A stretch of 64,000 nucleotides of DNA from contig OZ244937.1 of the NCBI GenBank assembly GCA_965222075.1, forward strand, positions 1,632,001-1,696,000, written 5' to 3'. Origin of the DNA: Candidatus Latescibacterota bacterium (lineage in GTDB: Bacteria > Latescibacterota > UBA2968 > GCA-2709665). Both the position numbers and the translations under genes were made by a program. How positions within the stretch are numbered: the first letter of the stretch is position 1; each line of letters opens with the position of its first letter. Below are positions 29,834 through 54,859 of the stretch, one piece after another. The notes under the pieces were generated by a model. It made no database searches and was not told the DNA's origin. It was given only the letters and a program-made list of their open reading frames with translations.

Positions 29834-30379
29834 TTAGGCCGAGCGACGGAGCGCGTCCGCCAACGCCGCAAATCGGCCGGCAACCGATGAACTCGGATGC
29901 GGGCATGGCAGGAAATCAATGTCGGCACGCCGCAAGGCCGTCTGCGCCTCGCGACCCAACGCGATGACCCTCCGCCCCTCAACCTCATACCGGGTCACCG
30001 CCTCGATTGAAAGCTTCATCAATTCGCGAGGCACCTTCCGCCGCCGGTTTTCCCTCGGCAAGAAATGGCACGCCTGTGTGATGTAGATGTTCCCACGCGT
30101 GCGCTCGACATCCTCCAGGATCCGGTCAAGAGTGCTGTTGAATGGGATGTCTGGCAAGTACCCCAAACACTCAAGGATTGCACGTTCCTGATTCACGGAT
30201 TCCGCATCCAACCAATGCTTCGCCACGAGTACCGGGCCGGTCATGCTGTTCGATATTTTCTGAATGGGCGATACCCAATCGCCATCAAACCCAACGTCGG
30301 CCAATGTCACCCACTGCTCCTGGAACTGATCCGGAACCTGAAGCTCGCGACGACGTGCGATGATGTCCTCTCTCGTCAC
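29834..30379 (-). CDS. Uracil-DNA-glycosylase-superfamily-like protein
   Basis: GAGGAG RBS; IYITQACHFL, RRVIALGREA, C-terminal HPS motif. Confidence 0.65.
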   Translation of the reverse strand: MTREDIIARRRELQVPDQFQEQWVTLADVGFDGDWVSPIQKISNSMTGPVLVAKHWLDAESVNQERAILECLGYLPDIPFNSTLDRILEDVERTRGNIYITQACHFLPRENRRRKVPRELMKLSIEAVTRYEVEGRRVIALGREAQTALRRADIDFLPCPHPSSSVAGRFAALADALRRSA

Positions 30380-34407: not shown

Positions 34408-34480
34408 ACGAACCTCCTGTCTTCGTTTACGTGGCACATTGCAGTCTCACTCTCACCACAAACTCCGCACGTACCCCAAC

Positions 34481-34717: not shown

Positions 34718-34786
34718 TGACTTACTTTATCCAGTCACGAAATAGCATGGCATTGCACCCCGATCCTTCAGGCAAGGGCCGCGTAC

Positions 34787-35005: not shown

Positions 35006-35034
35006 CGTCCGGTCTCCTTTTCGTCATCCGCTCC

Positions 35035-36920: not shown

Positions 36921-37033
36921 TTCATCCCCACGCCTGTGGGAGCACCAGGAGCACGGCCGGGAGCATCCGGTCCATCCCCACGCCTGTGGGAAGTATCTGC
37001 CGGCCGTTGTTTCAATCCTTGTTCTGGTGGAAG
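36921..37033 (-). CRISPR. Two type I-E-like repeats + partial main repeat
   Basis: TTCATCCCCACGCCTGTGGGAGCAC; CGGTCCATCCCCACGCCTGTGGGAAGTA; GTTTCAATCCTTGTTCTGGTGGAAG. Confidence 0.8.
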
Positions 37034-37247
37034 ATTCCCAACGGTGCGGGACAGTTGGCCGTGGCCACGGGTGAAGTGGACGCCTACGGCGGCAGCCGTG
37101 CTGATTCTGGTTGGCGGCAGTCGCTGAACGCTGGTGGAGGCTGTGCACCAATGTGCCGCAGACGGTGCGAGGGGTACCGCCACGATGCTATTGGTGTAGC
37201 GACCGGTATTCGACTTCACCGTACGTTCACGGCGTCCGGTGGCCCGC

Positions 37248-38111
37248 TCAGCCGCTATCAGCGTTGGGCTTCACCTCGATGATCAGGCGGCAGTGGTCGC
37301 TTGGTCCCCATTCGTGGACATCGTTCATCGCCCGCACCGACACCCTTTCGTGGAACCCGCGCGATGCGAATGCGTAGTCCAATTGATTCGCCGCCGTTTC
37401 CGGTCCGTCTCCTGGCTTGTAGTACGTCGGCACATTTTTCGTGTCGGACGGCACGTCGTCTGGCGCAGTTCCTGCGGGCCGACCGTGAGAAGCCTGCGGT
37501 CCCAGAAATTCCAGTCCGAGCACCTTTATTCGTTTCCAGACCGTGCCTTCGCGTTCCGGCAGTGACAGCCTATTGCCGGTCGCCCCGTAGAACATGTTCA
37601 GATCGCCCGCCGCCAGAATCCTGTGTCTGGCCGGGTTGGCGTGACCGATGAAAGCCGACAGGTCCGAAATGATTCGATGTGCCGAGGCGTCGGAGTAGCC
37701 AACGCTCCAACTGCTCCTGGTAGACGGATGAGGCTTCAGCCAGCGCGCGTACATCGAGACCGCGACGAAATCCTCGTGATCGCTGTCGTGCGGGAATACC
37801 TTCGCGGCGGCGATGGTCCCGATACCGCTGACGCCAATGGCGTCCGCTCCAAGCTCGCTGATGGGTGGCACCTGCTGGTACGGCTCGACCGTGATCCGAT
37901 CAGACAGCTTCACGACCAGCGGCCAGCGGTCGTACAACTGTCGGTTCCAAAACACCGCATCTTCGCATTCGACTAAATGCACCAGGTCGCCGGGTGGACT
38001 CCCCGCTTCCTGCAGGAGTGCCAGGTCCGCGTCGCCATCGTCCGCCATCTGCACCAGTTCACGCCACGGCTGCGCCCGTTTGCTGATGTTCCAGCTTACC
38101 ACCTTGATCAT
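37248..38111 (-). CDS. Endonuclease/exonuclease/phosphatase (EEP) family protein
   Basis: KVVSWNI, LALLQEA, AAGDLN, QLDYAF, SDHC; GGAGGT RBS. Confidence 0.9.
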   Translation of the reverse strand: MIKVVSWNISKRAQPWRELVQMADDGDADLALLQEAGSPPGDLVHLVECEDAVFWNRQLYDRWPLVVKLSDRITVEPYQQVPPISELGADAIGVSGIGTIAAAKVFPHDSDHEDFVAVSMYARWLKPHPSTRSSWSVGYSDASAHRIISDLSAFIGHANPARHRILAAGDLNMFYGATGNRLSLPEREGTVWKRIKVLGLEFLGPQASHGRPAGTAPDDVPSDTKNVPTYYKPGDGPETAANQLDYAFASRGFHERVSVRAMNDVHEWGPSDHCRLIIEVKPNADSG

Positions 38112-38138
38112 CCAATCACCTCCTCATCGCTCATTCCA

Positions 38139-38175
38139 GTTTCAATCCTTGCTCTGGTGGAAGTATTGCCCTGAG
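38139..38175 (-). CRISPR. Degenerate trailer repeat
   Basis: GTTTCAATCCTTGCTCTGGTGGAAGTATTGCCCTGAG. Confidence 0.85.
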
Positions 38176-38285
38176 CTTACGGCCTGGTCCCAATCAATAC
38201 AATCCAAGTCCATTACTTCCGGATGAAAAACCTCGGACCAGGGGCTGAGCTTACGGCCTGGTCCCAATCAATACAATTCAAGGGC

Positions 38286-41200
38286 GTTTCAATCCTTGTT
38301 CTGGTGGAAGTATTGCCCTGGGGCTGGCCGATGTGATCCGGGTGGATTTCACCGGCATGGGGTTTCAATCCTTGTTCTGGTGGAAGTATTGCCCTGGGGA
38401 AACACCAAGACGGAAAGCCGATGCATCGGTTCGATGTTTCAATCCTTGTTCTGGTGGAAGTATTGCCCTGGGGCTGATGAGCGCCCAACCTGAAAGGAGG
38501 ACCGGTGCAAGTTTCAATCCTTGTTCTGGTGGAAGTATTGCCCTGGGCGCCCTGGTCGACTCCATTCTGACCGGCGTGCCGGGTTTCAATCCTTGTTCTG
38601 GTGGAAGTATTGCCCTGGGGATTCCCGGGCGCGTTCGTGTATGCCGATGCGGTGTCGTTTCAATCCTTGTTCTGGTGGAAGTATTGCCCTGGGCGTTTGC
38701 GCATGTGGGGGGGAAAATCCACATGGAAACTAGTTTCAATCCTTGTTCTGGTGGAAGTATTGCCCTGGGATGGGCTTTACCATCACAAGTATGTCTTGCG
38801 TCTATGAAGTTTCAATCCTTGTTCTGGTGGAAGTATTGCCCTGGGATGGGCTTTACCATCACAAGTATGTCTTGCGTCTATGAAGTTTCAATCCTTGTTC
38901 TGGTGGAAGTATTGCCCTGGGAAGCAGATCCTTTACGTTTACGCGAAGGCAATCGAAGTTTCAATCCTTGTTCTGGTGGAAGTATTGCCCTGGGATCATC
39001 CCAACAACCATTGAGATAATCTAAGTATGCCTTTTCAACCGTTTCAATCCTTGTTCTGGTGGAAGTATTGCCCTGGGCGTACGCATCTTTGGGCAGCTTG
39101 TCCATGGCGCCTAAAGTTTCAATCCTTGTTCTGGTGGAAGTATTGCCCTGGGTCCCTGTTCGTTGCGGCCTCTGCCTCTACCCCAGCAGAGTTTCAATCC
39201 TTGTTCTGGTGGAAGTATTGCCCTGGGCCCGGGCCCGCCGGTGGGGGATGATGCTCCTCTGTGACATCCACCAGTTTCAATCCTTGTTCTGGTGGAAGTA
39301 TTGCCCTGGGAACGACTGCATACACTTTCAGGCTTTGTTCGGGTCCAGGTTTCAATCCTTGTTCTGGTGGAAGTATTGCCCTGGGAGCTCCCCGGAGGAA
39401 GCGTTTCGCTGGCCGTATCAGGGTTTCAATCCTTGTTCTGGTGGAAGTATTGCCCTGGGAATTCGGGAGCGTACTTGCCGTCCGACAGCACGATATCGGG
39501 TTTCAATCCTTGTTCTGGTGGAAGTATTGCCCTGGGAGCCGTAGCCTGCCCGCCGTGCCTCACTGTCGGCGTTTCAATCCTTGTTCTGGTGGAAGTATTG
39601 CCCTGGGCAGGTCGGACGCCTGCGCCCGCACCGCAAGCCTCTCCGAGTTTCAATCCTTGTTCTGGTGGAAGTATTGCCCTGGGTGTGGGCATCAAGGTCT
39701 TTGGGACCGGCCTCTGGATGTTTCAATCCTTGTTCTGGTGGAAGTATTGCCCTGGGTCGGACGCCATAGACATCAGCAATATCGGAACAGAGTTTCAATC
39801 CTTGTTCTGGTGGAAGTATTGCCCTGGGTTTCGACGATGAGGTTCAGGTAGACGCGGATGCTTTTTGTTTCAATCCTTGTTCTGGTGGAAGTATTGCCCT
39901 GGGCCAATAATTTCCTCTTCATTTCACACCTTCCTCTGTTGTTTCAATCCTTGTTCTGGTGGAAGTATTGCCCTGGGCGTTGGTTACGGGCGTCCCGTCG
40001 GGGTAACGGGCACTCTGTTTCAATCCTTGTTCTGGTGGAAGTATTGCCCTGGGATTAGAGTGCGTCAATCGGATATAGACGGGGGATGTTTCAATCCTTG
40101 TTCTGGTGGAAGTATTGCCCTGGGTCGGGGAATTCGCCCATGTAATGGTTCAAATAAATTGGTTTCAATCCTTGTTCTGGTGGAAGTATTGCCCTGGGCA
40201 GAGCACAAAACCGCCCGAAGGCAAGGGAATACTTGGGTTTCAATCCTTGTTCTGGTGGAAGTATTGCCCTGGGTGGCTGGCCTGTCGTCCGTCGTTGTTC
40301 GGAAGTAGAGTTTCAATCCTTGTTCTGGTGGAAGTATTGCCCTGGGCTTGGCAGGGCTGGGCAAGATACGGCGCGGCATGGCGAGGGTAGAGTTTCAATC
40401 CTTGTTCTGGTGGAAGTATTGCCCTGGGCCGTTGGGTGTCCTCCGCCCCGAATAGTGTGCATCCATACGTGTTTCAATCCTTGTTCTGGTGGAAGTATTG
40501 CCCTGGGTCTTCGGGCAGGCCCTTGTTCCGCCTGCCGACGATAACGGGGTTTCAATCCTTGTTCTGGTGGAAGTATTGCCCTGGGTCTTCGGGCAGGCCC
40601 TTGTTCCGCCTGCCGACGATAACGGGGTTTCAATCCTTGTTCTGGTGGAAGTATTGCCCTGGGGGGAGCGCTTCTCCGGCCAGGTCCCGATCGTCACCAT
40701 TGAGTTTCAATCCTTGTTCTGGTGGAAGTATTGCCCTGGGACGCGTCGGCGGATGTTGGCCTGGAGCTCAAGCACAACGTTTCAATCCTTGTTCTGGTGG
40801 AAGTATTGCCCTGGGCAGCACCTGGCCGTTGTGTTTTTTTAGCCGTGACAAGTTTCAATCCTTGTTCTGGTGGAAGTATTGCCCTGGGTTCCCCGCCTCC
40901 GGGCTCATCGCTTTTCATAGCTGCTTGTTTCAATCCTTGTTCTGGTGGAAGTATTGCCCTGGGCAGGATGACCCCTCACGATCTGTGCACCCAGGCCATA
41001 GTTTCAATCCTTGTTCTGGTGGAAGTATTGCCCTGGGAAGAGGGCAAGGGCAAGGGTGGGGATGATAACGGCGGTTTCAATCCTTGTTCTGGTGGAAGTA
41101 TTGCCCTGGGGAGGCTAAGGAGGCGTTGGAAAAGGATCTGCCTACGGAGTTTCAATCCTTGTTCTGGTGGAAGTATTGCCCTGGGGAAAAACGGTTGTCA

Positions 41201-44200
41201 CCCTGCCAGGTGATCAATGGTTGTTTCAATCCTTGTTCTGGTGGAAGTATTGCCCTGGGCGCTTTCGGGTCGAACAACGCCCTGGTCAAGCCCGTGTTTC
41301 AATCCTTGTTCTGGTGGAAGTATTGCCCTGGGTAGTCGAACTCGGCTTCGGACAGCAAGTTGAGATGAGGTTTCAATCCTTGTTCTGGTGGAAGTATTGC
41401 CCTGGGTAGTCGAACTCGGCTTCGGACAGCAAGTTGAGATGAGGTTTCAATCCTTGTTCTGGTGGAAGTATTGCCCTGGGTTTGTTCCTTTATGGTATTA
41501 TTTGACTATGGAAACAGTTTCAATCCTTGTTCTGGTGGAAGTATTGCCCTGGGTCTGTGAAACTGGGCTTTGAGGCCCGGCAGGATAAGAGTTTCAATCC
41601 TTGTTCTGGTGGAAGTATTGCCCTGGGCGGCATCGTAGGTATTGGAGTAATCCCATCCAAAAGGTTTCAATCCTTGTTCTGGTGGAAGTATTGCCCTGGG
41701 CAGGTTAAAGGGCACGATCAAGGACGCCCTGGAGAAGCAGTTTCAATCCTTGTTCTGGTGGAAGTATTGCCCTGGGCCTCCGCGATAGGGTCGACGCTGA
41801 GGTGGAGATCTTGATGTTTCAATCCTTGTTCTGGTGGAAGTATTGCCCTGGGACCAGGCCGTAGCCTGCCCGCCGTGCCTCGGAGTCGGGTTTCAATCCT
41901 TGTTCTGGTGGAAGTATTGCCCTGGGCCACCGGTCAACCGTGTCTCTACGCTGCGGCCCACAAAGTTTCAATCCTTGTTCTGGTGGAAGTATTGCCCTGG
42001 GTCGCCACCTCCTGCGGTTGTGCGCCAGTCACCCCAGAGTTTCAATCCTTGTTCTGGTGGAAGTATTGCCCTGGGAACAATGGCCTCCGGCGAGGTCTCC
42101 CACTCGCTAACGTTTCAATCCTTGTTCTGGTGGAAGTATTGCCCTGGGTCGCCCGATTGCGACGCAGCGAAAAACCGCCCGACCTTGGTAAGGGGATTAC
42201 GTTTCAATCCTTGTTCTGGTGGAAGTATTGCCCTGGGAAGAGGCCACGCGGGCCCAGGCCAGCGCAGCGATAAAGTTTCAATCCTTGTTCTGGTGGAAGT
42301 ATTGCCCTGGGGCCAATGCAGCACAGATGATTGCGAAAGCTAAAACATCCATGTTTCAATCCTTGTTCTGGTGGAAGTATTGCCCTGGGGAACTTATTTG
42401 CTTGTTTCTGGTCTATTATTCAGCGTGTTTCAATCCTTGTTCTGGTGGAAGTATTGCCCTGGGGGGGCCCCAGGCCCGCCGTCCCTCACCCTTTTCTCAG
42501 TTTCAATCCTTGTTCTGGTGGAAGTATTGCCCTGGGGTACATACCCATCTTCTACATTGGACGCCCGATCTCTGTTTCAATCCTTGTTCTGGTGGAAGTA
42601 TTGCCCTGGGGTACATACCCATCTTCTACATTGGACGCCCGATCTCTGTTTCAATCCTTGTTCTGGTGGAAGTATTGCCCTGGGTCATTGGCAGGATCGA
42701 CCTCATCCTTGCCTATGAGAGGTTTCAATCCTTGTTCTGGTGGAAGTATTGCCCTGGGCATCGCCTGCCTTCAGCTCAAATTGGACGGGGCCTTGAAGTT
42801 TCAATCCTTGTTCTGGTGGAAGTATTGCCCTGGGTTCTTTCCATCCCCACTCTCTCAGAGGATAGCGCTGGAGTTTCAATCCTTGTTCTGGTGGAAGTAT
42901 TGCCCTGGGACCAGTGAGGGAAGTTTCCCATCTCCGCTTACCAGTAGTTTCAATCCTTGTTCTGGTGGAAGTATTGCCCTGGGCCCCCTTATGCTGGAGT
43001 GATGGGATGCGTGATATAACGTTTCAATCCTTGTTCTGGTGGAAGTATTGCCCTGGGCCCCAGTCGCCCGGGGCGCATTTTCGTTGCCTTAGCTAATGTT
43101 TCAATCCTTGTTCTGGTGGAAGTATTGCCCTGGGCGCCACATTCGCATATATATTCACAATCACACATCATAGTTTCAATCCTTGTTCTGGTGGAAGTAT
43201 TGCCCTGGGATCGGAAATCGAGCAGAATATCATATCGTGGATGGACGAGTTTCAATCCTTGTTCTGGTGGAAGTATTGCCCTGGGAACGGTTGACGCGAG
43301 GTGGCACGTTCGCACAGTGGCGGGTTTCAATCCTTGTTCTGGTGGAAGTATTGCCCTGGGTGCCTGGCGAGAGGCTTGATGCGATAGGCATGGAGTTGTT
43401 TCAATCCTTGTTCTGGTGGAAGTATTGCCCTGGGTCTTTGTTGAAATCTCCGGCAGGCCTTATGTTCTCCAGTTTCAATCCTTGTTCTGGTGGAAGTATT
43501 GCCCTGGGCGCAGAGTAACAGGCCGCAGGCGATCAAGCTCCACGAGTTTCAATCCTTGTTCTGGTGGAAGTATTGCCCTGGGAGCTTAAGGCCGGCCAAG
43601 CATGGGGGCCGAAATATCAGTGTTTCAATCCTTGTTCTGGTGGAAGTATTGCCCTGGGCGCAGGGCAGGCAGTGAGCGCGCCCGGGCGCTGGGGTTTCAA
43701 TCCTTGTTCTGGTGGAAGTATTGCCCTGGGACCTGCGGCAGGCCTTTCTAGGGGACGCCGATGTATAAGTTTCAATCCTTGTTCTGGTGGAAGTATTGCC
43801 CTGGGCACCAGGTCCGGGTGATTATACTGCGTTCCATTTGGTTTCAATCCTTGTTCTGGTGGAAGTATTGCCCTGGGCGCTTCAAATCAACATCGACGGT
43901 CTCTGCATCAGGGACGTTTCAATCCTTGTTCTGGTGGAAGTATTGCCCTGGGCTTGTCACTGTAATCCGCGCCGATCATCTCCCATTCGTGTTTCAATCC
44001 TTGTTCTGGTGGAAGTATTGCCCTGGGGCAGACGAATCCGAGCTACAAGGACATAGCGGAAGATGGTTTCAATCCTTGTTCTGGTGGAAGTATTGCCCTG
44101 GGCCGGGGGGGCTCTCCTCCCCGGCTTCGTCGTCCGGGTTTCAATCCTTGTTCTGGTGGAAGTATTGCCCTGGGAAAGAGAGGGACGAAGCACAAGGCCA

Positions 44201-44695
44201 GCTAAATATTTGTTTCAATCCTTGTTCTGGTGGAAGTATTGCCCTGGGCTTGATCCAGAACTGGGCAGGTGTTCCCGGACGGTAGAGTTTCAATCCTTGT
44301 TCTGGTGGAAGTATTGCCCTGGGAATATGCCGTCGGCGCTTGGAGGTACCACCAATATTTGTTTCAATCCTTGTTCTGGTGGAAGTATTGCCCTGGGCGT
44401 TTATCCCTTTCGTATCCGTACACAGTACCCCCGAATGTTTCAATCCTTGTTCTGGTGGAAGTATTGCCCTGGGCAGGCCAATACTTTCCAGGCCGGGGAG
44501 ATGAGTAAGGTTTCAATCCTTGTTCTGGTGGAAGTATTGCCCTGGGGGTCGGGCCGGTGTTCCATGTCGAGCACGGTACCGCGTTTCAATCCTTGTTCTG
44601 GTGGAAGTATTGCCCTGGGCCGCCTCCAGTTCATTTTGTTTCTCACGCCTGGCATCATGTTTCAATCCTTGTTCTGGTGGAAGTATTGCCCTGGG
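38286..44695 (-). CRISPR. CRISPR array, ~86 x 37-nt repeats, spacers mostly 34-41 nt
   Basis: Repeat GTTTCAATCCTTGTTCTGGTGGAAGTATTGCCCTGGG (+ strand; manual count). The ATTGAAAC end and the leader position imply minus-strand transcription. Confidence 0.99.
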
Positions 44696-44867: not shown

Positions 44868-45464
44868 TTAGACGCAGATATTTTTGTAGCAACAGTCACC
44901 ACATTTGGCGCGGTGAGGTGTTTTTTTTGGCAGTCGCCCAGTTTGAATGATGTCAAGAATTTCAGCTACAATTTTCTTTGCGATGCTCTCTTCAGCCTCT
45001 CCGATAGGGACTTCTACCAGATGGCTACCGCCTCGAATGTAGGCAACATATCCCCGGGTCACGCGCTTTTGATAGGCTTCGCGGGTCAAGAGGCCATAGA
45101 GTGTAATTTGGATGCGATGGGTTTTGAAAGCATGTTCTCGGTAGGGTGAGTATTTGTAATCTAAAGGTGCGAAGGTCCCATCTCGCAATGTCAAAACTTC
45201 GTCCACAACCCCGCGCACACCAAGTTCGGGCGATGCCAGATACACATTGAGATCTCGATTGACAACGCCGATTTTCTTGCGCAAGTAAAATCGGTTTTCT
45301 TTTTCTCGGCGTTTGTGGACTTCTCGTCCTTTGAGCACCTTGAAACGACGGTCTTCAAACTGCGGGATGTTGAGCACGTTCATGTAGTATGTGAAACGCG
45401 GACAGTATACATGCTCAATCACCTCTGACGGCGTGATCATGATTGTTGTTTCAGTATCGCTCAC
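44868..45464 (-). CDS. cas4: CRISPR-associated exonuclease Cas4
   Basis: YCPR...G..VH, GVVDEV..PLDYK, KCGDCCYKNIC. Confidence 0.95.
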   Translation of the reverse strand: MSDTETTIMITPSEVIEHVYCPRFTYYMNVLNIPQFEDRRFKVLKGREVHKRREKENRFYLRKKIGVVNRDLNVYLASPELGVRGVVDEVLTLRDGTFAPLDYKYSPYREHAFKTHRIQITLYGLLTREAYQKRVTRGYVAYIRGGSHLVEVPIGEAEESIAKKIVAEILDIIQTGRLPKKTPHRAKCGDCCYKNICV

Positions 45465-45766
45465 AAGAACAAACTCCTCACATCGTCGGTGACGAGTTTG
45501 GGGTCAAAGGCCTGACCTTGAAGGATGACTTTGCGAAAGTCCATAGCACACATGGGAAAAATGTAAACGCGATCGCTTTCAAGATCAATGTGGTCTTCAA
45601 TGCGCATCGAAAGTTCATCGAGGCGGTTGTGTTTGACTGTGCCGAGGAAGACGGATTTTTGAATGCGGTAGAGGCCCGCTTCTTGACAGGCTTTGACAAC
45701 GCGACGACGGCTTTTGTTGTCGGAGATGTCGTAAAGGACCCAGGTGAGAGATTCATCGGATTTCAT
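45461..45766 (-). CDS. cas2: Cas2
   Basis: VLYDISDNKSRRRVVK...RIQKSVF. Confidence 0.95.
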   Translation of the reverse strand: MKSDESLTWVLYDISDNKSRRRVVKACQEAGLYRIQKSVFLGTVKHNRLDELSMRIEDHIDLESDRVYIFPMCAMDFRKVILQGQAFDPKLVTDDVRSLFL

Positions 45767-46761
45767 GGGACAGTTTCCTCTGTGTTCGGATCTTTTGCAA
45801 GCAGATCATTGGCGATGCGGTGCAGGTCAAACTGGATGCTGTCTCGCCGCGTGATATTGCGGCCCCGGTAGCGGATAGCCTCGTCGAGACACGCCGTGAA
45901 TGCTTCGATGAGCACCGCTTTGCCCTGTTTGTTCAGGGTGAAGCCATTTTTTAAGCTGTCGAACAGATCTTGTTTGATTTTTCGCGCGGAAAAAAGACTG
46001 AGAATTGTTTCGTCGGCCCAGATGCGATATTGTTCGATGAGATCAAAAACAAGGGATGGTTTGTTATAGTGGTCGGTGTGGATAAAGCCAATGTAGGGAT
46101 CGAGCCCTGAGAGCAAACAGGCGCGTTCGACCACGCCATAAAGGATGCCATAGGCGTAATTGAGCAGGCAGTTGAACGGATCTTTGGCCGGATTGCGGCT
46201 ACGACCTTTAAACCGATAGTGAGTCGGTAAAAGCAGAGATACAGCAGCCCAATAGGTGCGCCCGGCGCGACCTTCCAGACCGAGCAAACTCTGGCGCGTG
46301 GTATCGATATTCCCTGTGAGGTCCTGCATTTGCTCTTTGAGGGTTTTGAGACTGCCAATGGCTTCGGTAAGCTGCGCTGAAAGCCGCGTACGACGGTCGC
46401 GCATTCGCGTGAGCAATGCAATCTGATTGTCAAATTTGCGCCCGACCCAGCCAAGGGCGAGTTGCATGCCGAGGTCGGTTTGTGCAGCCACAAGTTGCAA
46501 CCGGCGAATGGCAGTTGTGGAACCCGGGCGTCCGTGCCACACACGGCCAAACGGATCGCCGTACTTATCGAGAAAGAGGATGTCGATGTTCTTTTCCACA
46601 GCAAGTTGCACTGCATCGGACGAAAACGCCGCGCCCGTTGAAATGAGAATGGAACGCACTTTGCGAGCGGAAATTTCAGTCGATTGCCCATTCACCTTGA
46701 CCAGAAACAATTCCCCACGCCGACTCAAATACGCGCCATAGGTGTTGAGTACGAGTTGCAC
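45763..46761 (-). CDS. cas1: Cas1
   Basis: LEGRAGRTYW, DPFNCLLNYAYGILY, GLDPYIGFIH, SLVFDLIE. Confidence 0.97.
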   Translation of the reverse strand: MQLVLNTYGAYLSRRGELFLVKVNGQSTEISARKVRSILISTGAAFSSDAVQLAVEKNIDILFLDKYGDPFGRVWHGRPGSTTAIRRLQLVAAQTDLGMQLALGWVGRKFDNQIALLTRMRDRRTRLSAQLTEAIGSLKTLKEQMQDLTGNIDTTRQSLLGLEGRAGRTYWAAVSLLLPTHYRFKGRSRNPAKDPFNCLLNYAYGILYGVVERACLLSGLDPYIGFIHTDHYNKPSLVFDLIEQYRIWADETILSLFSARKIKQDLFDSLKNGFTLNKQGKAVLIEAFTACLDEAIRYRGRNITRRDSIQFDLHRIANDLLAKDPNTEETVP

Positions 46762-46775
46762 AATTGTCCCTCTGT

Positions 46776-47441
46776 TTAAATTTCACGCATCAAACCGAAG
46801 CCGTTAGATGTTAGTTTACCGATGCCAATACCAGTAGGGAGAATCATATTGGAAACAAAGGATACTTTTACACCCTTAAAAACGACACCGTGATGTTTTA
46901 ACGATAGAAGTGAGAAGTTAAGCACGTGAGTCATTAGACGTTCTTGGAGATAAACGCCAACCCCTTTACATAATGAGAGATAGTTTCCATTAAGAATTTT
47001 CTCAAAAAGCTTTCTCCGATTTTCAACGTTCGACTCTTCTTGAAATATTGCATGATTCTTTTCATTAAGCGCCAGCCAAGGTGTAATTGAGCGATAACCG
47101 ATCAGATTGTATGATAGTCCGATAGCTACTATTTCGTCTTCCAGTTCTGCGCCCATAATCTGATACTGAATGCCTCCAACTCTGAGTGTATGACCCTGGT
47201 TGTAAATTTCTTGCAGAACTTGAAGGCCGTCATCGAAGGAAATGAGTTGGGGGAAGTTATTCAAGACGATATAGCGAACTCTGGGAGAACGATAGTCAAA
47301 TTGATCCCCCTTATGGTTGTGTAATACTGGCCGATTTGGAAACGCACCTGTTATAGCTTTTCGAAGTTCCGATCCTCGATGTTTAAACGGGCGGTCGGTG
47401 TAGATTTTTAATCGTCGAATATGTATCACATTTTCTGACAT
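46776..47441 (-). CDS. cas6: Cas6 (Cas6b-like) endoribonuclease
   Basis: LHNH..Y..P, ITPWLALN, C-terminal Gly loop GIGIGKLTSNGFG. Confidence 0.9.
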   Translation of the reverse strand: MSENVIHIRRLKIYTDRPFKHRGSELRKAITGAFPNRPVLHNHKGDQFDYRSPRVRYIVLNNFPQLISFDDGLQVLQEIYNQGHTLRVGGIQYQIMGAELEDEIVAIGLSYNLIGYRSITPWLALNEKNHAIFQEESNVENRRKLFEKILNGNYLSLCKGVGVYLQERLMTHVLNFSLLSLKHHGVVFKGVKVSFVSNMILPTGIGIGKLTSNGFGLMREI

Positions 47442-47442
47442 C

Positions 47443-49824
47443 TCAATTTCCAATGATGAGCACTCCTGAATTATACGGATCTTCTTCCGCTTTATACCCA
47501 AACCTCTTATCATATCCGAGCTTGGCATCCAACATACACAGTTCGTCAACAACATCTCTTGCATACACTTGTACAATTCGCTCCATCAAAGCAGCACGGA
47601 TTTTATAGAATTCCTTTCTGCGTTTTACTGGATTCACGATTTCTCTGATTCGAAGATATTGATCCCAAATTTCCTGATCATCACTATCTTGGACGATATA
47701 ATAGGATTGTCGGGGTAATTCTTCAATAAGCTGAAAACGATCTTCTACTTCTTTAAATTGTCCACAGGCCAACAGACGATCAATGGGTTCTTCGCTGTTA
47801 TGCGTGCGGTCGTAAACCATTTTGAAATAAGACTCCCCCAAGTCCAAAAACTCAGATTCAGCGACTTCCTCAAATTGGTTCAAAAGCTCTTGCGTTGCCC
47901 CTATCAATACTGGACTATAAATCCGCGTGAACGTTATCTCTTTCTCATCTGTTAAAGACCAGACCCTTACAATCCCTCCATCACCGTCTCCATGCCGATT
48001 ACAACGACCCGATGTTTGAATAATAGCATCTAGCGGTGCAAGATCTCTTTCAATCCGATCTACACTCAGATCAACGCCAGCTTCTATCAATTGTGTCGTA
48101 ATGACCAAAACGGGCTGATCCGCATCCAGTGACTTGCTAATGTCTTCAATCCGAGCGTTACGATCTTTAGGCGTTAGAAGTGCTGAAAGTGGGCAGATAA
48201 GAAATTCTTCTATGTTTACCTTTTTTTCAAATATTTCTGTTAGCTCACCTACGAGCCTTCGATAGTTGACCACAATCATGCGGCTGCATTTTGGATTTTG
48301 ATGAATTTCTTCGACAATCTCACTGACAAAACACTCAAGAGACGTATTTTCTTTTGCACGATTTACAAGATGCATACGCGATAGTTTTTGGTAATATTCT
48401 GGATGATTGGACAACAACTCCCTGGACATATCGGGCAAAAAAATCAACGGTTTTGTGGCTGTCATCAGTATGAAACGCGTTTCAAAACACCGGCTCATCA
48501 CTTTGAATATATTACGAATAGCTTGCCAGTATTTCGGAGGAATCGCCTGTACCTCATCGAGAATGACAATGGCTCTACGCAGCGTTGGCAAGCGTTTGAG
48601 ATTTCGATTTCTACCTGTGAAAATCGTATGGAGAAATTGATAAAATGTGGTTACTACAATTTCTGATTGCCACGTCTCAACAAAAAGTTCGGACCCATCA
48701 TGATCAAACTCCGAGTCTGAAGAGCAGTATTTCATATCTGTGAGATGGTGATGTTTCAAGAGCAAGTCCGTTGTTTCAGACAGTCCTCCGAGTTCTAATA
48801 CTTTTCGATAAACATCGTGGTTTTGATCAATAATTGCGGTAAAAGGCAAACAATAGATGATCCGCGGGTTTTCTTGATATACTTCTCGCAACTCATGACG
48901 TAAATGAAGTGCTGCATCCAAAGCGGTCAAGGTTTTTCCAGACCCAGTCGGTGCTGTGAGTGTGAATAGTTTCTCATCTAAATGAGCAGATAATTCGCGT
49001 AAAACATCATCTCTAACGCGATCTCTTATTTCATCAAGGGGTGATGGTTTCTGATCTTGTTTTAAGTGTATCAGATAGTTGTGTACAAGATCATTGGGCA
49101 GTTCTAAGCGATTAAATTCTGTTTCCCCTGTTGCAGTATGGATTTTATCCATTTGCAAAAGACTGCCAAATCCAAACAAGAAATCTACTGTCCGGTCGAG
49201 TTGCTCAAGACAAATATCCTTTTCATTACTAGTGAAAGCTTTCCTAAGACGAAATTGAGGTATGGCCTCCATAGTTTGTCGAAGAACAGATTCGTTAAGA
49301 TCAGGTACTTCAAAGTGAAGGCCGAACTCAGGCAAAGTCTTTCTTAGCCATCGTGTAATGCCTGAGAGATCCATGCTGTCAATTTGGCGAGCAAATGTCC
49401 CTTGTGGCCCCTGGTCGTCCCGAAGATGGCCTTTGGCTTCGACAAAATAATCGGACCACGACTTTTGTAGATTACCATGGTGTCTCATAACAGAGGTAAT
49501 CACCGAAAGCTGGAATTGATACGCGGTCTTCTGATTTGGTGCTTGAACGCTCTGACTGATCAGCCAACCAATAATCGCAGAAACAAATGAGTGGTTGGAC
49601 AGTTCAGATCTTTCTCCTTTACAACCCGGCTGGACGCGCTCCTGAAACCAAAAGGTCGCTTTGCCCAAATCATGGACGAGTGCAGCCAGCAGTGCAGCTT
49701 GCGCTGGCAAAGGCCGACTGTCCCCCCACAATTGGTTTACACCTCTGGCGACTTCTTTAAGATGAGCTTGCAAAAAATCGTCTGGAGGATGCGCCAAGCA
49801 TTCAGAAAAAGAGTATGTGGTCAT
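47443..49824 (-). CDS. cas3: Cas3 HD nuclease-helicase
   Basis: HDLGK, HHG, APTGSGKT, DEVQ, TAT, QLIEAGVD, QTSGRCNR. Confidence 0.97.
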   Translation of the reverse strand: MTTYSFSECLAHPPDDFLQAHLKEVARGVNQLWGDSRPLPAQAALLAALVHDLGKATFWFQERVQPGCKGERSELSNHSFVSAIIGWLISQSVQAPNQKTAYQFQLSVITSVMRHHGNLQKSWSDYFVEAKGHLRDDQGPQGTFARQIDSMDLSGITRWLRKTLPEFGLHFEVPDLNESVLRQTMEAIPQFRLRKAFTSNEKDICLEQLDRTVDFLFGFGSLLQMDKIHTATGETEFNRLELPNDLVHNYLIHLKQDQKPSPLDEIRDRVRDDVLRELSAHLDEKLFTLTAPTGSGKTLTALDAALHLRHELREVYQENPRIIYCLPFTAIIDQNHDVYRKVLELGGLSETTDLLLKHHHLTDMKYCSSDSEFDHDGSELFVETWQSEIVVTTFYQFLHTIFTGRNRNLKRLPTLRRAIVILDEVQAIPPKYWQAIRNIFKVMSRCFETRFILMTATKPLIFLPDMSRELLSNHPEYYQKLSRMHLVNRAKENTSLECFVSEIVEEIHQNPKCSRMIVVNYRRLVGELTEIFEKKVNIEEFLICPLSALLTPKDRNARIEDISKSLDADQPVLVITTQLIEAGVDLSVDRIERDLAPLDAIIQTSGRCNRHGDGDGGIVRVWSLTDEKEITFTRIYSPVLIGATQELLNQFEEVAESEFLDLGESYFKMVYDRTHNSEEPIDRLLACGQFKEVEDRFQLIEELPRQSYYIVQDSDDQEIWDQYLRIREIVNPVKRRKEFYKIRAALMERIVQVYARDVVDELCMLDAKLGYDKRFGYKAEEDPYNSGVLIIGN

Positions 49825-50515
49825 CGCCTATCTCGTATGCTTGGTCGGTTTCAACGGTTATTGAACTTCCATCCTCCGCGACAACGACCTCCCGATAATC
49901 TACAACTGTTCTGTCTGGTTGCATTTGCGCCGGTACTCGATATCGGACATAGCGCCTACCCTTTTCGTATCTACAATTTTCTTCGGGATCAGGTACAACT
50001 GAAGCAATGTTATATTCTGTCCTCGAAAGTGGTTGGCCTTCAAATACGCCGACAAAGGCAACATCCGCAATACATTGTGCAAGGCCAAGAGATGGCGTAT
50101 ATACTGTCCTGCCCGCTTGAAGTTGGCTTTCCAGGTTCTGCATTGCTTCATCTATGGCTTCCGCGATATAAATCCGAAAAGCAGGTTCAAGAAGGAATTC
50201 ATAGGGATATTGGCCCCTTGTAGCGCGACTGGTACTGTCCGGCACTAGGCGGAAATATTTATTGCCTTCGTGCGTGAGTACCAGGTTTAACCCTGTTCGA
50301 TATTTGCGTGTTGGTTTGAGTAGACGAACGCCAACGCGTACCTTCTCCCACCCAATTCTCGACAGATACTCTTCTTTTCCATAGCCCAAGATAGCCCCTA
50401 TAAGGCCAAGAACTGTCGGCGGTGGTGGAAAAGGATAAGTTACAGGGGAAACGGGCGCATACGGTTTACGAAAATGCCCATAAGGACCACTCACATCGAA
50501 CACGATTGTATGCAT
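49802..50515 (-). CDS. cas5: Cas5 (type I-B)
   Basis: FDVSGPYGHFRKP...TYPFPPPPTVLGLIGAILG; YTPSLG. Confidence 0.95.
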   Translation of the reverse strand: MHTIVFDVSGPYGHFRKPYAPVSPVTYPFPPPPTVLGLIGAILGYGKEEYLSRIGWEKVRVGVRLLKPTRKYRTGLNLVLTHEGNKYFRLVPDSTSRATRGQYPYEFLLEPAFRIYIAEAIDEAMQNLESQLQAGRTVYTPSLGLAQCIADVAFVGVFEGQPLSRTEYNIASVVPDPEENCRYEKGRRYVRYRVPAQMQPDRTVVDYREVVVAEDGSSITVETDQAYEIGDDHILFF

Positions 50516-50519
50516 TAGA

Positions 50520-51503
50520 TCACCTGATGTTCAAGGGAGTTGGTTGCAGGTCACGACTTACAGCCAGTGATGTAAAATCGCCTTCTTCGTCCCCATCTCT
50601 AAGTTTAAGGCGAGAATCCTGAACAATCTTCAACCCTACAATATCATCTTTCAATATATCAAGACCATCGAGTAATTGTGCGATATTGACTTCATAGTCA
50701 TCAATCGAACGAATAGCTATATCCTCTTTTTCGCTCTTTAGAGAGATTCGACCGGAGAGGTCGCCTAAGCGTCGGCCATTGGTGTAGCGTAACACCAATA
50801 ACAAAAGGGGTTGATGACCCATCTTGGATCTGCTGATTAGTGATTCAGTCCCTTTCCAGAGTCCTTCTAACAACAACGAGACATCTTCTTCTGATAAATC
50901 AGTTGTTTGCGCTGCAACTTCGTTGACAACACCATACGCAGATATGAGAGCATATGGAAGAATATGGTCTTCACGAAAGGATTTTTGAGTAGAATTCTTC
51001 TTGGATGCAAAGCCTGCTGTACCTTGTATAAGCTGCGAACTTACACGATGCAATGAGCGATTAAATCCTGAAAATTGGACTGGGCCCGTAAGCCGTATAG
51101 ACGACTTTTTTTTGCCAAATTCCACTGGCAGGGTTGCTCCAAAAAGCCTCGCATCAATACAGTGGTCCAAGATGGTATTGCGAACTTTCGAGACCATTGT
51201 TGTAATTTTATCGTCTTCGGTCACACCCGCTTTACCAAGAAAATCATCGCATCGACCTTTTCCATCCTGGAGATACCCATCTTCGTCTTCTGTATCTCTG
51301 ACAAGGATTTCAAGACCTTTGGTTTGAAACAAATAATCTCGCACTGTTCTTTTGATCCTCACGTCGGTTACAGTTGCCACGCCCGTTTCTGGATCGGTAC
51401 GAGGTTTGTTTTCGTCCAGAGGATCACCGTTGGGATTACAGTCTTTTGTTTCATACAGAAACAGAATTTCCATACGGTTTTCGATTGAATTTCGGTCAGC
51501 CAT
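50520..51503 (-). CDS. cas7: Cas7 (Csh2/Cas7b)
   Basis: CNPNGDPLDENKPR, TDVRIKRTVRDY, IDARLFG, TGPVQF, SRSKMG. Confidence 0.95.
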   Translation of the reverse strand: MADRNSIENRMEILFLYETKDCNPNGDPLDENKPRTDPETGVATVTDVRIKRTVRDYLFQTKGLEILVRDTEDEDGYLQDGKGRCDDFLGKAGVTEDDKITTMVSKVRNTILDHCIDARLFGATLPVEFGKKKSSIRLTGPVQFSGFNRSLHRVSSQLIQGTAGFASKKNSTQKSFREDHILPYALISAYGVVNEVAAQTTDLSEEDVSLLLEGLWKGTESLISRSKMGHQPLLLLVLRYTNGRRLGDLSGRISLKSEKEDIAIRSIDDYEVNIAQLLDGLDILKDDIVGLKIVQDSRLKLRDGDEEGDFTSLAVSRDLQPTPLNIR

Positions 51504-51520: not shown

Positions 51521-53293
51521 TTAATCTTCGGTTAAGACAGCATTTTTATCTGTCTGGCGGATTTTATCTGCGAGACTCAAGCCCAGTGTGAAAGCAAAGG
51601 TCGATTCTTCATCAGAGATATTCCATTCTTTGCCACAATTAACCCACGCTTCTGCGAGTTGGGGATCAAGAGTTTTAGCTACCCAACCAAAGCGTGCATA
51701 TTGGCGCAATTTAGTTTGCGCTTCTGGATAAATGTGCTGGAGTTTCCGGCGATCCATTTTTACACCCTGAACTTTTTTGAGGAATGGTGTCCGTTTGTCG
51801 AGGTCCTGATATTGAGCGGATGCCACTGTTTTAACATAACATCCAGTTAAAAAAGCAACAGCCTTTTCCTGGAGATCAAAAAACTCAGGATGAGATTTAA
51901 TATACTTTCCATACACATTGTCTTGTTCTGCCATCGTCACACCTCCTTTTGGTGGGGTTAAAATCTGAAGAAGACTCAGAAAACGATATGTCGCCCATGC
52001 ATCGCGAACGGTAAATACGGCTTTGTCCGGTTCTCTTTTGTAGGCAGTGAGAATAACGGATACAGCGTCTCGAAGGAAGACTTCACGAGCAATTTTGTTT
52101 TTACCACCGGAAAAAATACGGTCGACATAAGCCAGAAATTGTTTCTGGCTACTTTTGTCTGATCGTGTGCCAGTAAATTGACGTAATGTTTTAAGTGTAA
52201 AACCGTAAGTCTGATTTTTGCTGAAATTTAAGAAAGAATCGAGATCAATTTGGTTTTTTATGCAATAAATTTCTTGAATGCGTGATGGTAGAATTTCATG
52301 AATCTCGGCAGTAATTCTCCAGGCTGCATTCTTTTTTTGATAAAAAACCATGGATAACGCAATGGTATCCTTGTACCCAGAAACTTCTGCCAGTGCTTCC
52401 AGAATCTCGTTCTCGGAGTATGTAATTGTCCTTAAGGCATCCTTTTTAAGTGAAACACGTTCTCGCTTCTCCAATTCTTCAATGACATATTTGCTCAGTT
52501 CCGGGTTGCGAATCTGGGGCAAAAGTAAATATGATTCTCCAGCCAGACTAAATTGGAGATTTGTGTTGACGTAATTCCAGCCTTTTGATACAGCAAGCAT
52601 ACAGAGATCACATACAGGAAAATTTCGTGTCGCAGCACTATTATTCATGCCTCCCGTGATTAAACCTCTTTTGTCGAGATTGTAGCACGAGATCAATGAG
52701 AAATTTCCAAATACTTTTTCGGCTTGCTTTCCACACACAGAGCAAGCTTGATTTTTGGCTTCTAAAGGGAGTTTTTTGACACGACCATACCGGGAGAGTA
52801 CTTCAGAGATCGCAAATTGTTGGAAATGATTGTCTTTGTAGAATGGATCTAGTTTGGTACTTTCAACCCAAGCCAAATACACGAAGGGATATTTTTCGCG
52901 TGTATCAAGCTCTTCAAGCGTATTTTCAATATGCTCAGCGATTTGGATGTCATCATATCCGTCCAGAATATTATCTACCCGGTCTTGAATGGGTTCAACC
53001 TGGGGTGATTGGCTAAAAGCCTTCAAACATTTGTGAAGTCTTTGTGCGACTTTCTGCGGACTACCCGCAAATTTGGAGACTACCAATGGGTCAAATCCAT
53101 TAGGTGCTCCTTTGATATAGATCACATCTTTGCTACCTTCTGTTATTTTAATACCCTTGTATTGACCAGTTTCATCGAAACAGACAGCCAATCCATAATA
53201 GTATGAAGGTTCCAAGCCTTCATTCAAAAGTTTGATGCGAGCACTTTCATTTCCATAAAGAATTTGAGAAATATGAAGTAGTCGTTCGAACAT
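51521..53293 (-). CDS. cas8b: Cas8b (Csh1-type) large subunit
   Basis: CSVCG...YNLDKRG...NFPVCDLC; C-terminal AFLTG...FAFTLG; first gene of the operon. Confidence 0.88.
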   Translation of the reverse strand: MFERLLHISQILYGNESARIKLLNEGLEPSYYYGLAVCFDETGQYKGIKITEGSKDVIYIKGAPNGFDPLVVSKFAGSPQKVAQRLHKCLKAFSQSPQVEPIQDRVDNILDGYDDIQIAEHIENTLEELDTREKYPFVYLAWVESTKLDPFYKDNHFQQFAISEVLSRYGRVKKLPLEAKNQACSVCGKQAEKVFGNFSLISCYNLDKRGLITGGMNNSAATRNFPVCDLCMLAVSKGWNYVNTNLQFSLAGESYLLLPQIRNPELSKYVIEELEKRERVSLKKDALRTITYSENEILEALAEVSGYKDTIALSMVFYQKKNAAWRITAEIHEILPSRIQEIYCIKNQIDLDSFLNFSKNQTYGFTLKTLRQFTGTRSDKSSQKQFLAYVDRIFSGGKNKIAREVFLRDAVSVILTAYKREPDKAVFTVRDAWATYRFLSLLQILTPPKGGVTMAEQDNVYGKYIKSHPEFFDLQEKAVAFLTGCYVKTVASAQYQDLDKRTPFLKKVQGVKMDRRKLQHIYPEAQTKLRQYARFGWVAKTLDPQLAEAWVNCGKEWNISDEESTFAFTLGLSLADKIRQTDKNAVLTED

Positions 53294-53322
53294 GATTTTT
53301 TCCTTTTAAAATGGAGATTATA

Positions 53323-53422
53323 ATTCTAAATCCTTGTTTTAATGGATTTTATGATATATATTTTAACTTAACAGAACCATACCATGTTTCAATCCTTGTT
53401 TTGATAGTGGACTTCCAATGAT
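53323..53422 (-). ncRNA. Mini-CRISPR (two degenerate repeats, one ~26-nt spacer): CreR-like regulatory crRNA
   Basis: Repeats GTTTCAATCCTTGTTTTGATAGTGG (53386) and ATTCTAAATCCTTGTTTTAATGGA (53323); spacer matches 53474-53491 at 16/18. Confidence 0.8.
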
Positions 53423-53492
53423 TTGCCACAAGTTATGGAATTCATCACCAGTTCTGTCATTGGAGATTCTATTTTAACATAACCATACAATT

Positions 53493-53521
53493 AAGATAAC
53501 CGTTTCCGGGTAAAATGTCAA
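53493..53521 (-). promoter_or_regulatory. sigma70 promoter of the cas operon
   Basis: TTGACA-17 nt-TATCTT. Confidence 0.8.
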
Positions 53522-53590
53522 GAAAGACCTGAATAGTACTGCATGGCAGTACCGCAATTGATTCCCCGCCAAAATCTTCCATGAACTTTT

Positions 53591-54559
53591 TTACTTCCCC
53601 TTTCCATACATTTTCCCCGCTGCAATCATATCCTCTGCAATCACCTGCCTCAGTTCCTCCGGCTCCAGCACCTCGCAGTCCGGTCCCCAGCCCCGAATCC
53701 ACGGCTTCATCTCCAATGTATGCTTCACTCCCAGCCGCATCCGGCACCCGCCGTCCGGCTCATCCGTCACCTCCACCACGCCCGGCCAGTCCGATTCCCG
53801 CACCCGGTACGCCACCCTGGCTGAAAACCGCAACACCACCTCCACAACATCGTCGCCGCCCATAACGCCCCAGGAATGTTCTAAATAATCGTACGGATCG
53901 AATCCATCCTGCACTTCGTAGACCGTCTCCAGCAGCGTGGCCCGTTCAATCCGCTCCACTTTGAACTCTCGAATATTCCGGCGCAAATGGTCATAACCGA
54001 TGACATAACAGGCATATCCGATCGGGGAAGGCTCGATAAAATAGGGATCAAAGGTGCGCCTGGTGGTTTTTTGGGTCTGTGGATTGTGATAAGTCAACCG
54101 CACCTGCTTGCGTTCGGACCAGGCGCGGGTAAGGGTTTCCAGAACACGAATATAATCGCGATGCCGTTTGCGCTTGTCAGCGACTGCGGCCGTTCGGGTG
54201 ATATGTTCGCCTACGGACTCCGGCATCGCACTGGCCAGCTTCTCTAAGGCGGAAACAACATTGGGATTGTGTTTATCGCTGTGTGCCGAAAGCAGGCGTG
54301 CGGCCAGATAAAGCGCCAGGGCCTCGTGCAAACGCACCCGGACCGTGGTCAAATACCGATCCTTCAGCACCCCGAACCGACCCTCATCCTCCCAGATCGG
54401 TGTACCGGACGCCTCCAGCGACTGAAGATCCCGGTACACAGTACTTCGATGCACCCCAAAACGGTCCACAATCTCCGAAACCCTCCGTCCGTCCGCGGAT
54501 CGGAAGAGAAACGTCTCAATCGCTATCAGCCGCTCCACACGGCTCTGTGTTCGTCCCAT
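53591..54559 (-). CDS. HTH-WYL-WCX transcriptional regulator
   Basis: GGAGG RBS; RFGVHRSTVYRDL; RTFDPY...YVIGYDHLRRNIREFKVERI; WIRGWGPDCEVLEPEELR. Confidence 0.95.
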   Translation of the reverse strand: MGRTQSRVERLIAIETFLFRSADGRRVSEIVDRFGVHRSTVYRDLQSLEASGTPIWEDEGRFGVLKDRYLTTVRVRLHEALALYLAARLLSAHSDKHNPNVVSALEKLASAMPESVGEHITRTAAVADKRKRHRDYIRVLETLTRAWSERKQVRLTYHNPQTQKTTRRTFDPYFIEPSPIGYACYVIGYDHLRRNIREFKVERIERATLLETVYEVQDGFDPYDYLEHSWGVMGGDDVVEVVLRFSARVAYRVRESDWPGVVEVTDEPDGGCRMRLGVKHTLEMKPWIRGWGPDCEVLEPEELRQVIAEDMIAAGKMYGKGK

Positions 54560-54592
54560 CAAAATCCTCCACCCGTCAATATACACCCCACC

Positions 54593-54611
54593 TGTCGCAA
54601 CTACTGCGACA
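54593..54611. promoter_or_regulatory. Palindromic operator upstream of the WYL gene
   Basis: Perfect inverted repeat TGTCGCA-N5-TGCGACA, 34 nt upstream of the ATG. Confidence 0.6.
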
Positions 54612-54859
54612 CCCGATATATTTTTTTGGCCTTCATCACATTTTCTACCTCTCCGGGGGGATGAAGGACCGTGTAACAAGGAGGGGGGTGACGCGCGAGC
54701 GCCTGCACGCGCTACCGAATTGCTGGAAAAACGCTTACGACATTCGGTTCACAATCTCACGCGCACGGGGTCGGCCATAGATCAGCCCACCTTGTAAGCG
54801 CGTACGGGCAGCGAATCCGTTTGGCTGCATAAACTCATGCGAACTTATGAAATCGACCA

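Follow-up and report, generated by a model that had tools for sequence, protein, structure and literature searches.

A putative CreR-type mini-CRISPR in the leader of a type I-B cas operon from a Latescibacterota-like bacterium

Does a type I-B cas operon of an uncultured, Latescibacterota-like bacterium carry, ahead of its first gene, the very guide with which its effector complex would hold the operon promoter down? The question is raised by a degenerate repeat, a spacer-like segment and a second degenerate repeat located in the 5′ region of the cas genes of the window, that is, the whole 64,000-nucleotide stretch of DNA analysed here. From its anatomy, its guide/target match and its behaviour in related genomes, this element is probably a CreR-type (Cas-regulating RNA) mini-CRISPR that autorepresses the cas operon.

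The type I-B locus and the anatomy of its mini-array

The locus is an intact CRISPR-Cas system of type I-B, and its Cas8b is of the TM1802/Csh1 type. It comprises cas8b, cas7, cas5, cas3, cas6b, an adaptation module and an adjoining array whose repeat ends in ATTGAAAC:

53591..54679, minus strand: HTH-WYL-WCX regulator gene, directly upstream of the promoter (stop codon 53593..53591)
51521..53293, minus strand: cas8b (Csh1/TM1802 type), first gene of the operon
51503..50520, minus strand: cas7/Csh2
50515..49802, minus strand: cas5 (cas5h)
49824..47443, minus strand: cas3
47576..46776, minus strand: cas6b
46761..45763, minus strand: cas1
45766..45461, minus strand: cas2
45464..44868, minus strand: cas4
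38139..44695, minus strand: CRISPR array of 86 perfect 37-nt repeats (38286-44695) and one degenerate terminal repeat with two changes

The cas8b ORF encodes 590 residues from an ATG at 53293, with an AGGA ribosome-binding site ahead of it, and its product exceeds the cut-offs of both the TIGR02556 cas_TM1802 (178.5 bits) and the TIGR02591 Csh1 (130.3 bits) models. From cas7 to cas4 (44868..51503, minus strand), all genes run in one direction, each abutting or overlapping its neighbour. The array, the leader of which is on the cas4 side, is made of the repeat CCCAGGGCAATACTTCCACCAGAACAAGGATTGAAAC (minus sense). As this repeat ends in AACAAGGATTGAAAC, the crRNA 5′ handle is predicted to be AUUGAAAC, and the array and the cas genes are read in one direction. 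The array also holds an exact duplication of four adjacent spacer-repeat units (38732-38922, 40471-40663, 41296-41481 and 42495-42684). The G+C content of the cas operon is 40-46%, versus 57-62% in the flanks, and relatives in the same order carry the label Candidatus Latescibacterota MAGs. The WYL protein likely provides a second, protein-based layer of control, which is not mutually exclusive with an RNA-based one.

Between the regulator gene and cas8b, the following features are found:

53516..53521, minus strand: −35 hexamer TTGACA of the cas operon promoter (letters read, and consensus scan), with the same hexamer at the homologous place of the relative G023
53493..53498, minus strand: −10 hexamer TATCTT, at 17-nt spacing from the −35 (consensus scan)
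53492..53494, minus strand: TTA, the putative PAM, overlapping the last two bases of the −10 and also present at the G023 target
53474..53491, minus strand: protospacer-like target ATTGTATGGTTATGTTAA, spanning the predicted transcription start
53386..53422, minus strand: ψR1, a degenerate repeat, with the predicted 5′ handle ATTGAAAC at its end (53393..53386)
53347..53385, minus strand: ψS, a spacer-like guide starting with ATGGTATGGTTCTGTTAA, the pairing part being 53385..53368
53323..53346, minus strand: ψR2, a degenerate repeat (TCCATTAAAACAAGGATTTAGAAT) with the 3′-handle part kept and the last 8 nt decayed

Along the minus strand, the order is therefore WYL stop codon, promoter, TTA, target, linker, ψR1, ψS, ψR2 and cas8b. 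The target lies 88 nt upstream of the guide, on the same strand and on the promoter, and the linker between target and ψR1 is about 51-70 nt long. Read from 53385 on the minus strand, ψS begins with ATGGTATGGTTCTGTTAAG. The last 15 nt of ψR1 are exactly those of the array repeat, and ψR2 retains TCCA..A.AACAAGGATT of that repeat, its last 8 nt being lost. Rfam CRISPR-DR7 matches the two pseudo-repeats on the minus strand with 26.4 and 19.5 bits, both below the 37-bit threshold. Folding predicts the repeats to be essentially unstructured, which argues neither way. At 53529-53586, a palindromic element of ~58 nt separates the WYL stop codon from the −35. Elsewhere in the genome it occurs twice more, at 90% and 95% identity, and it also matches other contigs in the metagenome runs; this element explains most of the length by which the intergenic region exceeds that of G023.

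Regarding their kinship, the ψR2 sequence TCCATTAAAACAAGGATT is the ordinary repeat body of many AT-rich arrays in metagenome contigs (L038-L117), the repeats of which end in TCCATTAAAACAAGGATTGAAAC or GATTAAGAC. The pseudo-repeats are hence nearer to that family than to the repeat of their own genome and, together with the low G+C content of the cas operon, this closeness suggests a horizontal origin.

Guide/target match and co-variation among relatives

The first 18 bases of the spacer match the target at 16 positions, with mismatches at positions 3 and 12, and the target site overlaps both the −10 and the predicted transcription start. The earlier note had described the degenerate repeat-spacer-degenerate repeat unit in the cas 5′ region, this 16/18 match with its two mismatches, and a TTA overlapping the −10 of a TTGACA-17-TATCTT promoter. 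All three descriptions are borne out, with every coordinate and letter of the unit correct, by reading of the letters, by alignment and by a consensus scan of 53200-53700, in which this promoter (10 of 12 consensus matches) is the only sigma70-like site.

Could such a match arise fortuitously? None of 5000 composition-preserving shuffles of the 18-mer equals the observed match within the 198 nt upstream of ψR1. On both strands of the 5.36-Mb genome, the target is the sole non-self site at 16/18, no site reaches 15/18, and 18 sites reach 14/18. This genome-wide uniqueness is by itself weak evidence because, in a control with the 18-mers located next to five further solitary repeats of the window, one 18-mer also obtains 16/18 at two distant genomic places. 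These two sites are flanked by AGG and TGA, neither by TTA, and neither lies inside the locus. The case rests on the combined position, strand and TTA flank of the target. A 14/18 match at window position 57495 (PAM TGG) was rejected as a further target, being within chance with 18 such sites genome-wide. Short similarity is also found 3′ of the target and of ψR2 (TGGAGATTATAATT versus TGGAGATTCTATTT on the plus strand), which suggests that guide and target share ancestry via a local duplication; such an origin concerns ancestry and does not speak against present function.

Relatives of this Cas8b are rare, being found in 3 of 41 genomes in a first sample and in 4 of the 168 genomes of the phylum (the genome of the window counted). 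A search of 185,579 species genomes with a three-sequence Cas8b alignment returned two loci, both already known, and no related loci were returned either by Cas8b alone as a query against the species-genome contigs or by the search of metagenome contigs for Cas8b-related loci. The 19-mer of ψR2 gives 82 matches at 80 metagenome loci, none of which is followed by a cas8b start like that of the window, and at least 35 of them are the ends of ordinary arrays. Close loci in the searched collections number three only: the window and the genomes designated G023 and G029.

In G023 (L002/L005), Cas8b is 79% and the WYL protein 69% identical to their window counterparts, at the same position. Its ψR1 and ψR2 are nearly unchanged, sharing identical blocks of 20 nt (CTATCAAAACAAGGATTGAA, ψR1) and 25 nt (AAAATCCATTAAAACAAGGATTTAG, ψR2) with the window, and its guide, ATGGTTTGTTTGTAAATG, differs from the window guide. 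The best match of this guide in 7.7 kb is ATGGTATGTTTCTAAATA, preceded by TTA, 1046 nt upstream on the same strand. It is located inside TTGACA-17-TATGTT, immediately after the stop codon of the WYL gene, a place homologous to that of the window target. Its 15 pairing positions are all matched, and positions 6, 12 and 18 hold the only mismatches; three mismatches placed at random would land on exactly these positions with a probability of 1 in 816. None of 5000 shuffles equals the G023 match. Throughout the 4.7-Mb genome, perfect agreement at the 15 pairing positions is confined to the guide and the target; sites with a single mismatch are absent, and 13 other sites among those listed carry two. 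Of the intervening sequence, we note that a DUF3800 gene lies between the guide-targeted promoter and the mini-array in G023 (L005 1871-2710).

Ungapped comparison of the window with G023 reveals that positions 9, 14, 15, 16 and 17 have changed in guide and target alike. Guide and target are identical at 16 of 18 positions within the window and at 15 of 18 within G023, as compared with 11 of 18 between the orthologous targets and 10 of 18 between the orthologous guides. The TTA flank is common to both genomes although the bases preceding it differ. Co-varied guide and target next to a kept TTA are the mark that selection for pairing leaves with a type I effector; since the pair occurs in only two, related genomes, the evidence amounts to one co-variation comparison.

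G029 (L003/L004) encodes a Cas8b 79% identical and a WYL protein 68% identical to those of the window, at the same position. Neither a ψR1 nor a target after the WYL gene is found there, only a ψR2 remnant, and the promoter-like sequence differs (TTGCAT-17-TATATT). Guide and target are thus present together twice and absent together once. The interval between the WYL gene and cas8b of G029 (L004 2175-2823) holds a small ORF of 124 aa and, on the opposite strand, another of 84 aa, and the genes inserted in this interval differ between G023 and G029. A more distant locus, G042 (Cas8b 50% identical, fragmented contig), exhibits repeat-like remnants right after a TTGACA-17-TACTAT promoter; for its three candidate guides, the available 2.6-kb contig contains no target, and this locus lends no support.

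The proposed feedback loop, its putative PAM and the seed mismatch

From the observed anatomy, excess over chance, co-variation and joint loss, we infer a mechanism that involves transcription, processing, loading, PAM recognition and repression without cleavage. The single sigma70-like promoter (53521..53493) would fire near 53486, and the transcript would run through ψR1-ψS-ψR2 into cas8b-cas7-cas5-cas3-cas6b. The mini-array is placed in the leader of the cas mRNA because no other promoter-like site and no terminator were found. Cas6b would cut the pseudo-repeats, 8 nt before the end of ψR1 and within ψR2, and the released crRNA-like RNA of ~60 nt, with its 5′ handle, would be loaded into Cascade. 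Cascade would then recognise TTA, the first 18 nt of the guide pairing with the template strand across the −10 and the transcription start, and the bound complex would block RNA polymerase at the promoter of its own operon. Pairing would stop after ~18 nt, in which case no full R-loop would form and Cas3 would not be licensed, as with CreA and CreR in Liu et al. Cascade would in this way repress its own operon and, in this arrangement, its own guide. As the guide would be made from the promoter that it represses, guide and Cascade would be tied into one homeostatic loop. With fewer free Cascade complexes, owing to competing crRNAs or to anti-CRISPR inhibition, the promoter would be de-repressed, the anti-CRISPR part being extrapolated from Liu et al. 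(bioRxiv 10.1101/2023.03.10.532045).

The TTA is assigned as the putative PAM on the grounds of relatives and literature. The repeat-adjacent trinucleotide of the array is AAC, and the window Cas8b passes both the TM1802 and the Csh1 models. For type I-B systems with this type of Cas8b, Table 1 of PMC13199841 gives the PAMs YYD for T. maritima, TTN/TNA for H. thermocellum, TTB/CCC for H. hispanica and TTA for P. thermoglucosidasius, so TTA is permitted in three of the four systems tabulated there. According to PMC10551041, TTA is the best of the 64 trinucleotides in P. thermoglucosidasius, where it is used for both repression and cleavage.

The array spacers themselves offer little on this point. 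Compared with the genome of origin, the 85 regular spacers and one 110-nt gap sequence gave one strong match only, a near-identical spacer of a second array and not a protospacer. Searching with the whole array returned two records among GenBank phages (one Acinetobacter phage, E = 0.05), treated as chance, and among PLSDB plasmids nothing but a similar array, carried by a Runella plasmid. In the 168 genomes of the phylum, it returned similar-repeat arrays only, without any spacer match of at least 20 nt in the returned loci, the best two candidates per genome being scored, so that protospacers were possibly missed. For 7 of the 85 spacers, the exact core was compared with IMG/VR, with zero matches in each case, and an all-against-all comparison of 633 spacers of related arrays gave no informative offset pair. 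The second array (genome C1:2493016-2496475, outside the window) consists of 48 repeats of a different 36-nt repeat, and the I-B spacer at 44547-44582 recurs in it, shifted by 1 nt, with two changes and in the opposite chromosomal orientation. This shifted shared spacer suggests a G at protospacer position −1, which fits TTG, YYD or TTN but is not TTA.

Turning to the seed, position 3 presents a G in the guide against a T in the protospacer, which is neither a wobble pair nor a flipped-out position. The seed of the window (positions 1-5, 7 and 8) is therefore not fully paired, whereas that of G023 is. The earlier note had proposed a Cascade-guided negative feedback on the cas promoter, with TTA as a PAM in some I-B systems and every sixth position flipped out in type I Cascade. 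The feedback corresponds to the published mechanism and is strongly supported by the G023 co-variation with its kept TTA; the statement on TTA agrees with the published YYD, TTN/TNA and TTA PAMs; and the every-sixth-base rule excuses the mismatch at position 12 but not that at position 3, which belongs to the seed. As reported in PMC13199841, single mismatches at positions 1-5 or 7 leave little or no binding in the I-B system of T. maritima, and Liu et al. describe for H. hispanica that altering the CreA target at one seed position, 5 or 10, de-represses both promoters. Owing to the position-3 mismatch, repression in the window genome may be weak or lost, and is probably weaker than in the G023 relative.

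The main rival is a relic: the element would have worked in an ancestor and would still work in G023, the position-3 mutation having switched the loop off in the window genome, with the promoter and the WYL protein alone setting cas expression. We consider this rather unlikely, although several facts favour it. In the two I-B systems just cited, one seed mismatch suffices to abolish binding or repression, G029 illustrates that the lineage can lose the loop entirely, and the mismatch is fixed in all four population contigs. The latter comprise one spanning contig from each of four runs of four studies (X1, X2, X3 and X7; depths 3-12); such contigs drop rare variants, and X1 is possibly the source sample. 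Of the public runs listed as RNA, none contains this stretch. Within 53150-53644, these contigs vary at 53257 in cas8b, at 53467 and 53473, which are target positions 25 and 19, past the paired part, at 53480, which is target position 12, and at 53511, between the −35 and the −10. The mini-array, the PAM, both hexamers and the pairing positions are free of variants in the four contigs. For four intergenic variants, the chance of such a pattern is estimated at ~0.1, and it gives weak support to the CreR reading. A dead element should accumulate changes, yet ψR1, ψR2, the PAM and the 14 remaining pairing positions are undecayed in the four contigs, and the sole change within the target sits at the non-pairing position 12. 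Moreover, pairing at 16 of 18 positions exceeds the 11-15 nt reported for CreA/CreR in the published work cited here, and might tolerate one mismatch.

Other explanations and comparison with known systems

The pseudo-repeats could also be mere cutting sites at which Cas6b trims the 5′ leader of the cas mRNA, the similarity between spacer and promoter being the leftover of a duplication without guide function. Genes on the array's trailer side are indeed preceded by solitary repeats, as are genes in relatives, and the extra short similarity after the target and after ψR2 points the same way. A duplication remnant, however, leaves unexplained the parallel changes at five pairing positions, the confinement of the G023 mismatches to positions 6, 12 and 18, and the conserved TTA of G023, in which guide and target are 1046 nt apart. 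The 18-mers after the five other solitary repeats have no local target. This explanation is accordingly judged very improbable.

We give as little credence to a CreTA-like addiction module, in which the repressed promoter would drive an unrecognised small toxin encoded between the target and ψR1, and loss or inhibition of Cascade would kill or arrest the cell. CreA and CreT occupy the same kind of place in the haloarchaeal I-B loci described by Liu et al., a 23-codon ORF begins at ~53460, and the DUF3800 gene of G023 is under the targeted promoter. However, the 23-codon ORF is without a Shine-Dalgarno sequence and runs into ψR1, and the stretch between the target and ψR1 is not conserved in G023, with no conserved ORF or structure there. 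In addition, the cas genes follow directly, and their regulation needs no added assumption. Finally, a chance similarity, with the operon controlled by the upstream HTH-WYL-WCX protein alone, is scarcely credible: each of the three close loci retains the WYL regulator at this position, but the shuffle tests, the genome-wide uniqueness in two genomes and the co-variation all speak against it.

The preferred reading, a CreR-type autorepressor, places the window among systems already described. Liu et al. report CreR mini-CRISPRs in type I-B, I-E and V-A systems. As described there, CreR and the window element are both a degenerate repeat-spacer-repeat in a cas intergenic region; ψR1 keeps the 8-nt 5′ handle and ψR2 the 3′-handle part in both; the 5′ part of both spacers matches a site at an effector-gene promoter, flanked by the PAM in CreR and by the putative PAM TTA in the window; and neither is accompanied by an obvious toxin gene. 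The window guide differs in its place, downstream of the targeted promoter and ahead of cas8b; as it has no predicted promoter of its own, guide and cas mRNA would share one repressed transcript. Its pairing is longer than in the CreR examples given (16/18) but mismatched in the seed, and its host is an uncultured, Latescibacterota-like bacterium.

The cr-like RNAs of Shmakov et al. (bioRxiv 10.1101/2023.03.03.530964 / PMC10120712) likewise consist of two repeat-like sequences around a spacer partly complementary to cas8 or cas6 promoters. These mini-arrays are described in PMC10120712 as using the cognate PAM, leaving every sixth base unpaired, and being common and conserved in I-B, I-E and I-F1 systems. 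In the I-E and I-F1 cases and in the Clostridium I-B case upstream of cas6 presented there, the target is downstream of the mini-array, whereas that of the window is upstream. The CreTA module of Haloarcula hispanica belongs to the same subtype and, according to Liu et al., its CreA represses Pcas8 by partial pairing that seed changes relieve; CreA also holds down the RNA toxin CreT, while the window is without a recognisable toxin. The Parageobacillus thermoglucosidasius I-B system shares with the window the TTA PAM, putative in the latter, and a repeat ending in AAC. PMC10551041 reports that guides of at most 26 nt repress transcription there without Cas3 cleavage next to a TTA PAM, as an engineered tool and not a natural circuit. 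Lastly, tracr-L on cas9 (bioRxiv 10.1101/2020.05.21.102756), as presented in that source, resembles the window element as a natural guide of short complementarity that sends an effector to its own promoter, but belongs to class 2 and has an RNA architecture unlike the mini-array.

Self-regulation by a promoter-targeting CreR or cr-like RNA is thus already published, and the window locus would add another instance, leaving the general picture of such circuits unchanged. What it would provide is a natural and well-supported case of Cas autorepression guided by RNA, from the type I-B system of a bacterium in an uncultured phylum, with an unusually clean co-variation in which the G023 mismatches occur only at every sixth base. 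Two twists would be a guide located within the transcript that it represses and a seed mismatch, present by nature, that possibly tunes the loop.

More tentatively, these elements may be read jointly, with the guide in the repressed leader, Cascade metering itself and its guide, leader genes as Cascade-controlled cargo, the seed mismatch as a set-point, and a defence regulon around Cas6b and Cascade. We hold this joint reading to be possible rather than probable. If it were true, the guide would be cut from the cas mRNA by Cas6b, and Cascade would meter both its own synthesis and the supply of its regulator. Genes landing in the leader would switch on upon Cascade inhibition, as the DUF3800 gene of G023 may illustrate. 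The fixed seed mismatch would be a set-point raising Cas output for the 86-repeat array, and solitary repeats before defence-like genes would make Cas6b and Cascade the organisers of a small defence regulon.

Such solitary repeats, five in number, are found behind the array on the minus strand (26980-38175), each with its 3′ 25 nt kept, among genes for defence-like proteins:

38153-38139, minus strand: solitary repeat
38111..37248, minus strand: EEP nuclease
37023-37009, minus strand: solitary repeat
36600..35035, minus strand: Schlafen AlbA_2/HATPase_c_4/Fic-like_C protein
31271-31257, minus strand: solitary repeat
30379..29834, minus strand: UDG-like protein
29677-29663, minus strand: solitary repeat
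29520..28666, minus strand: Nmad3
26994-26980, minus strand: solitary repeat

The 18-mers after these five repeats have neither a local target nor a convincing one genome-wide. The repeats ending at 37009 and 29663 are followed by the same ~40-nt sequence, which contains the palindrome CCCCACAGGCGTGGGG. In the relatives L025, L032, L034, L035 and L020, each locus has several solitary repeats ending in ATTGAAAC, located 4 nt ahead of the start codon (ATG) of paralogous genes, an arrangement that looks like repeat-flanked gene cassettes or Cas6-processed mRNAs. Two-repeat mini-arrays are also present in L018 and L027.
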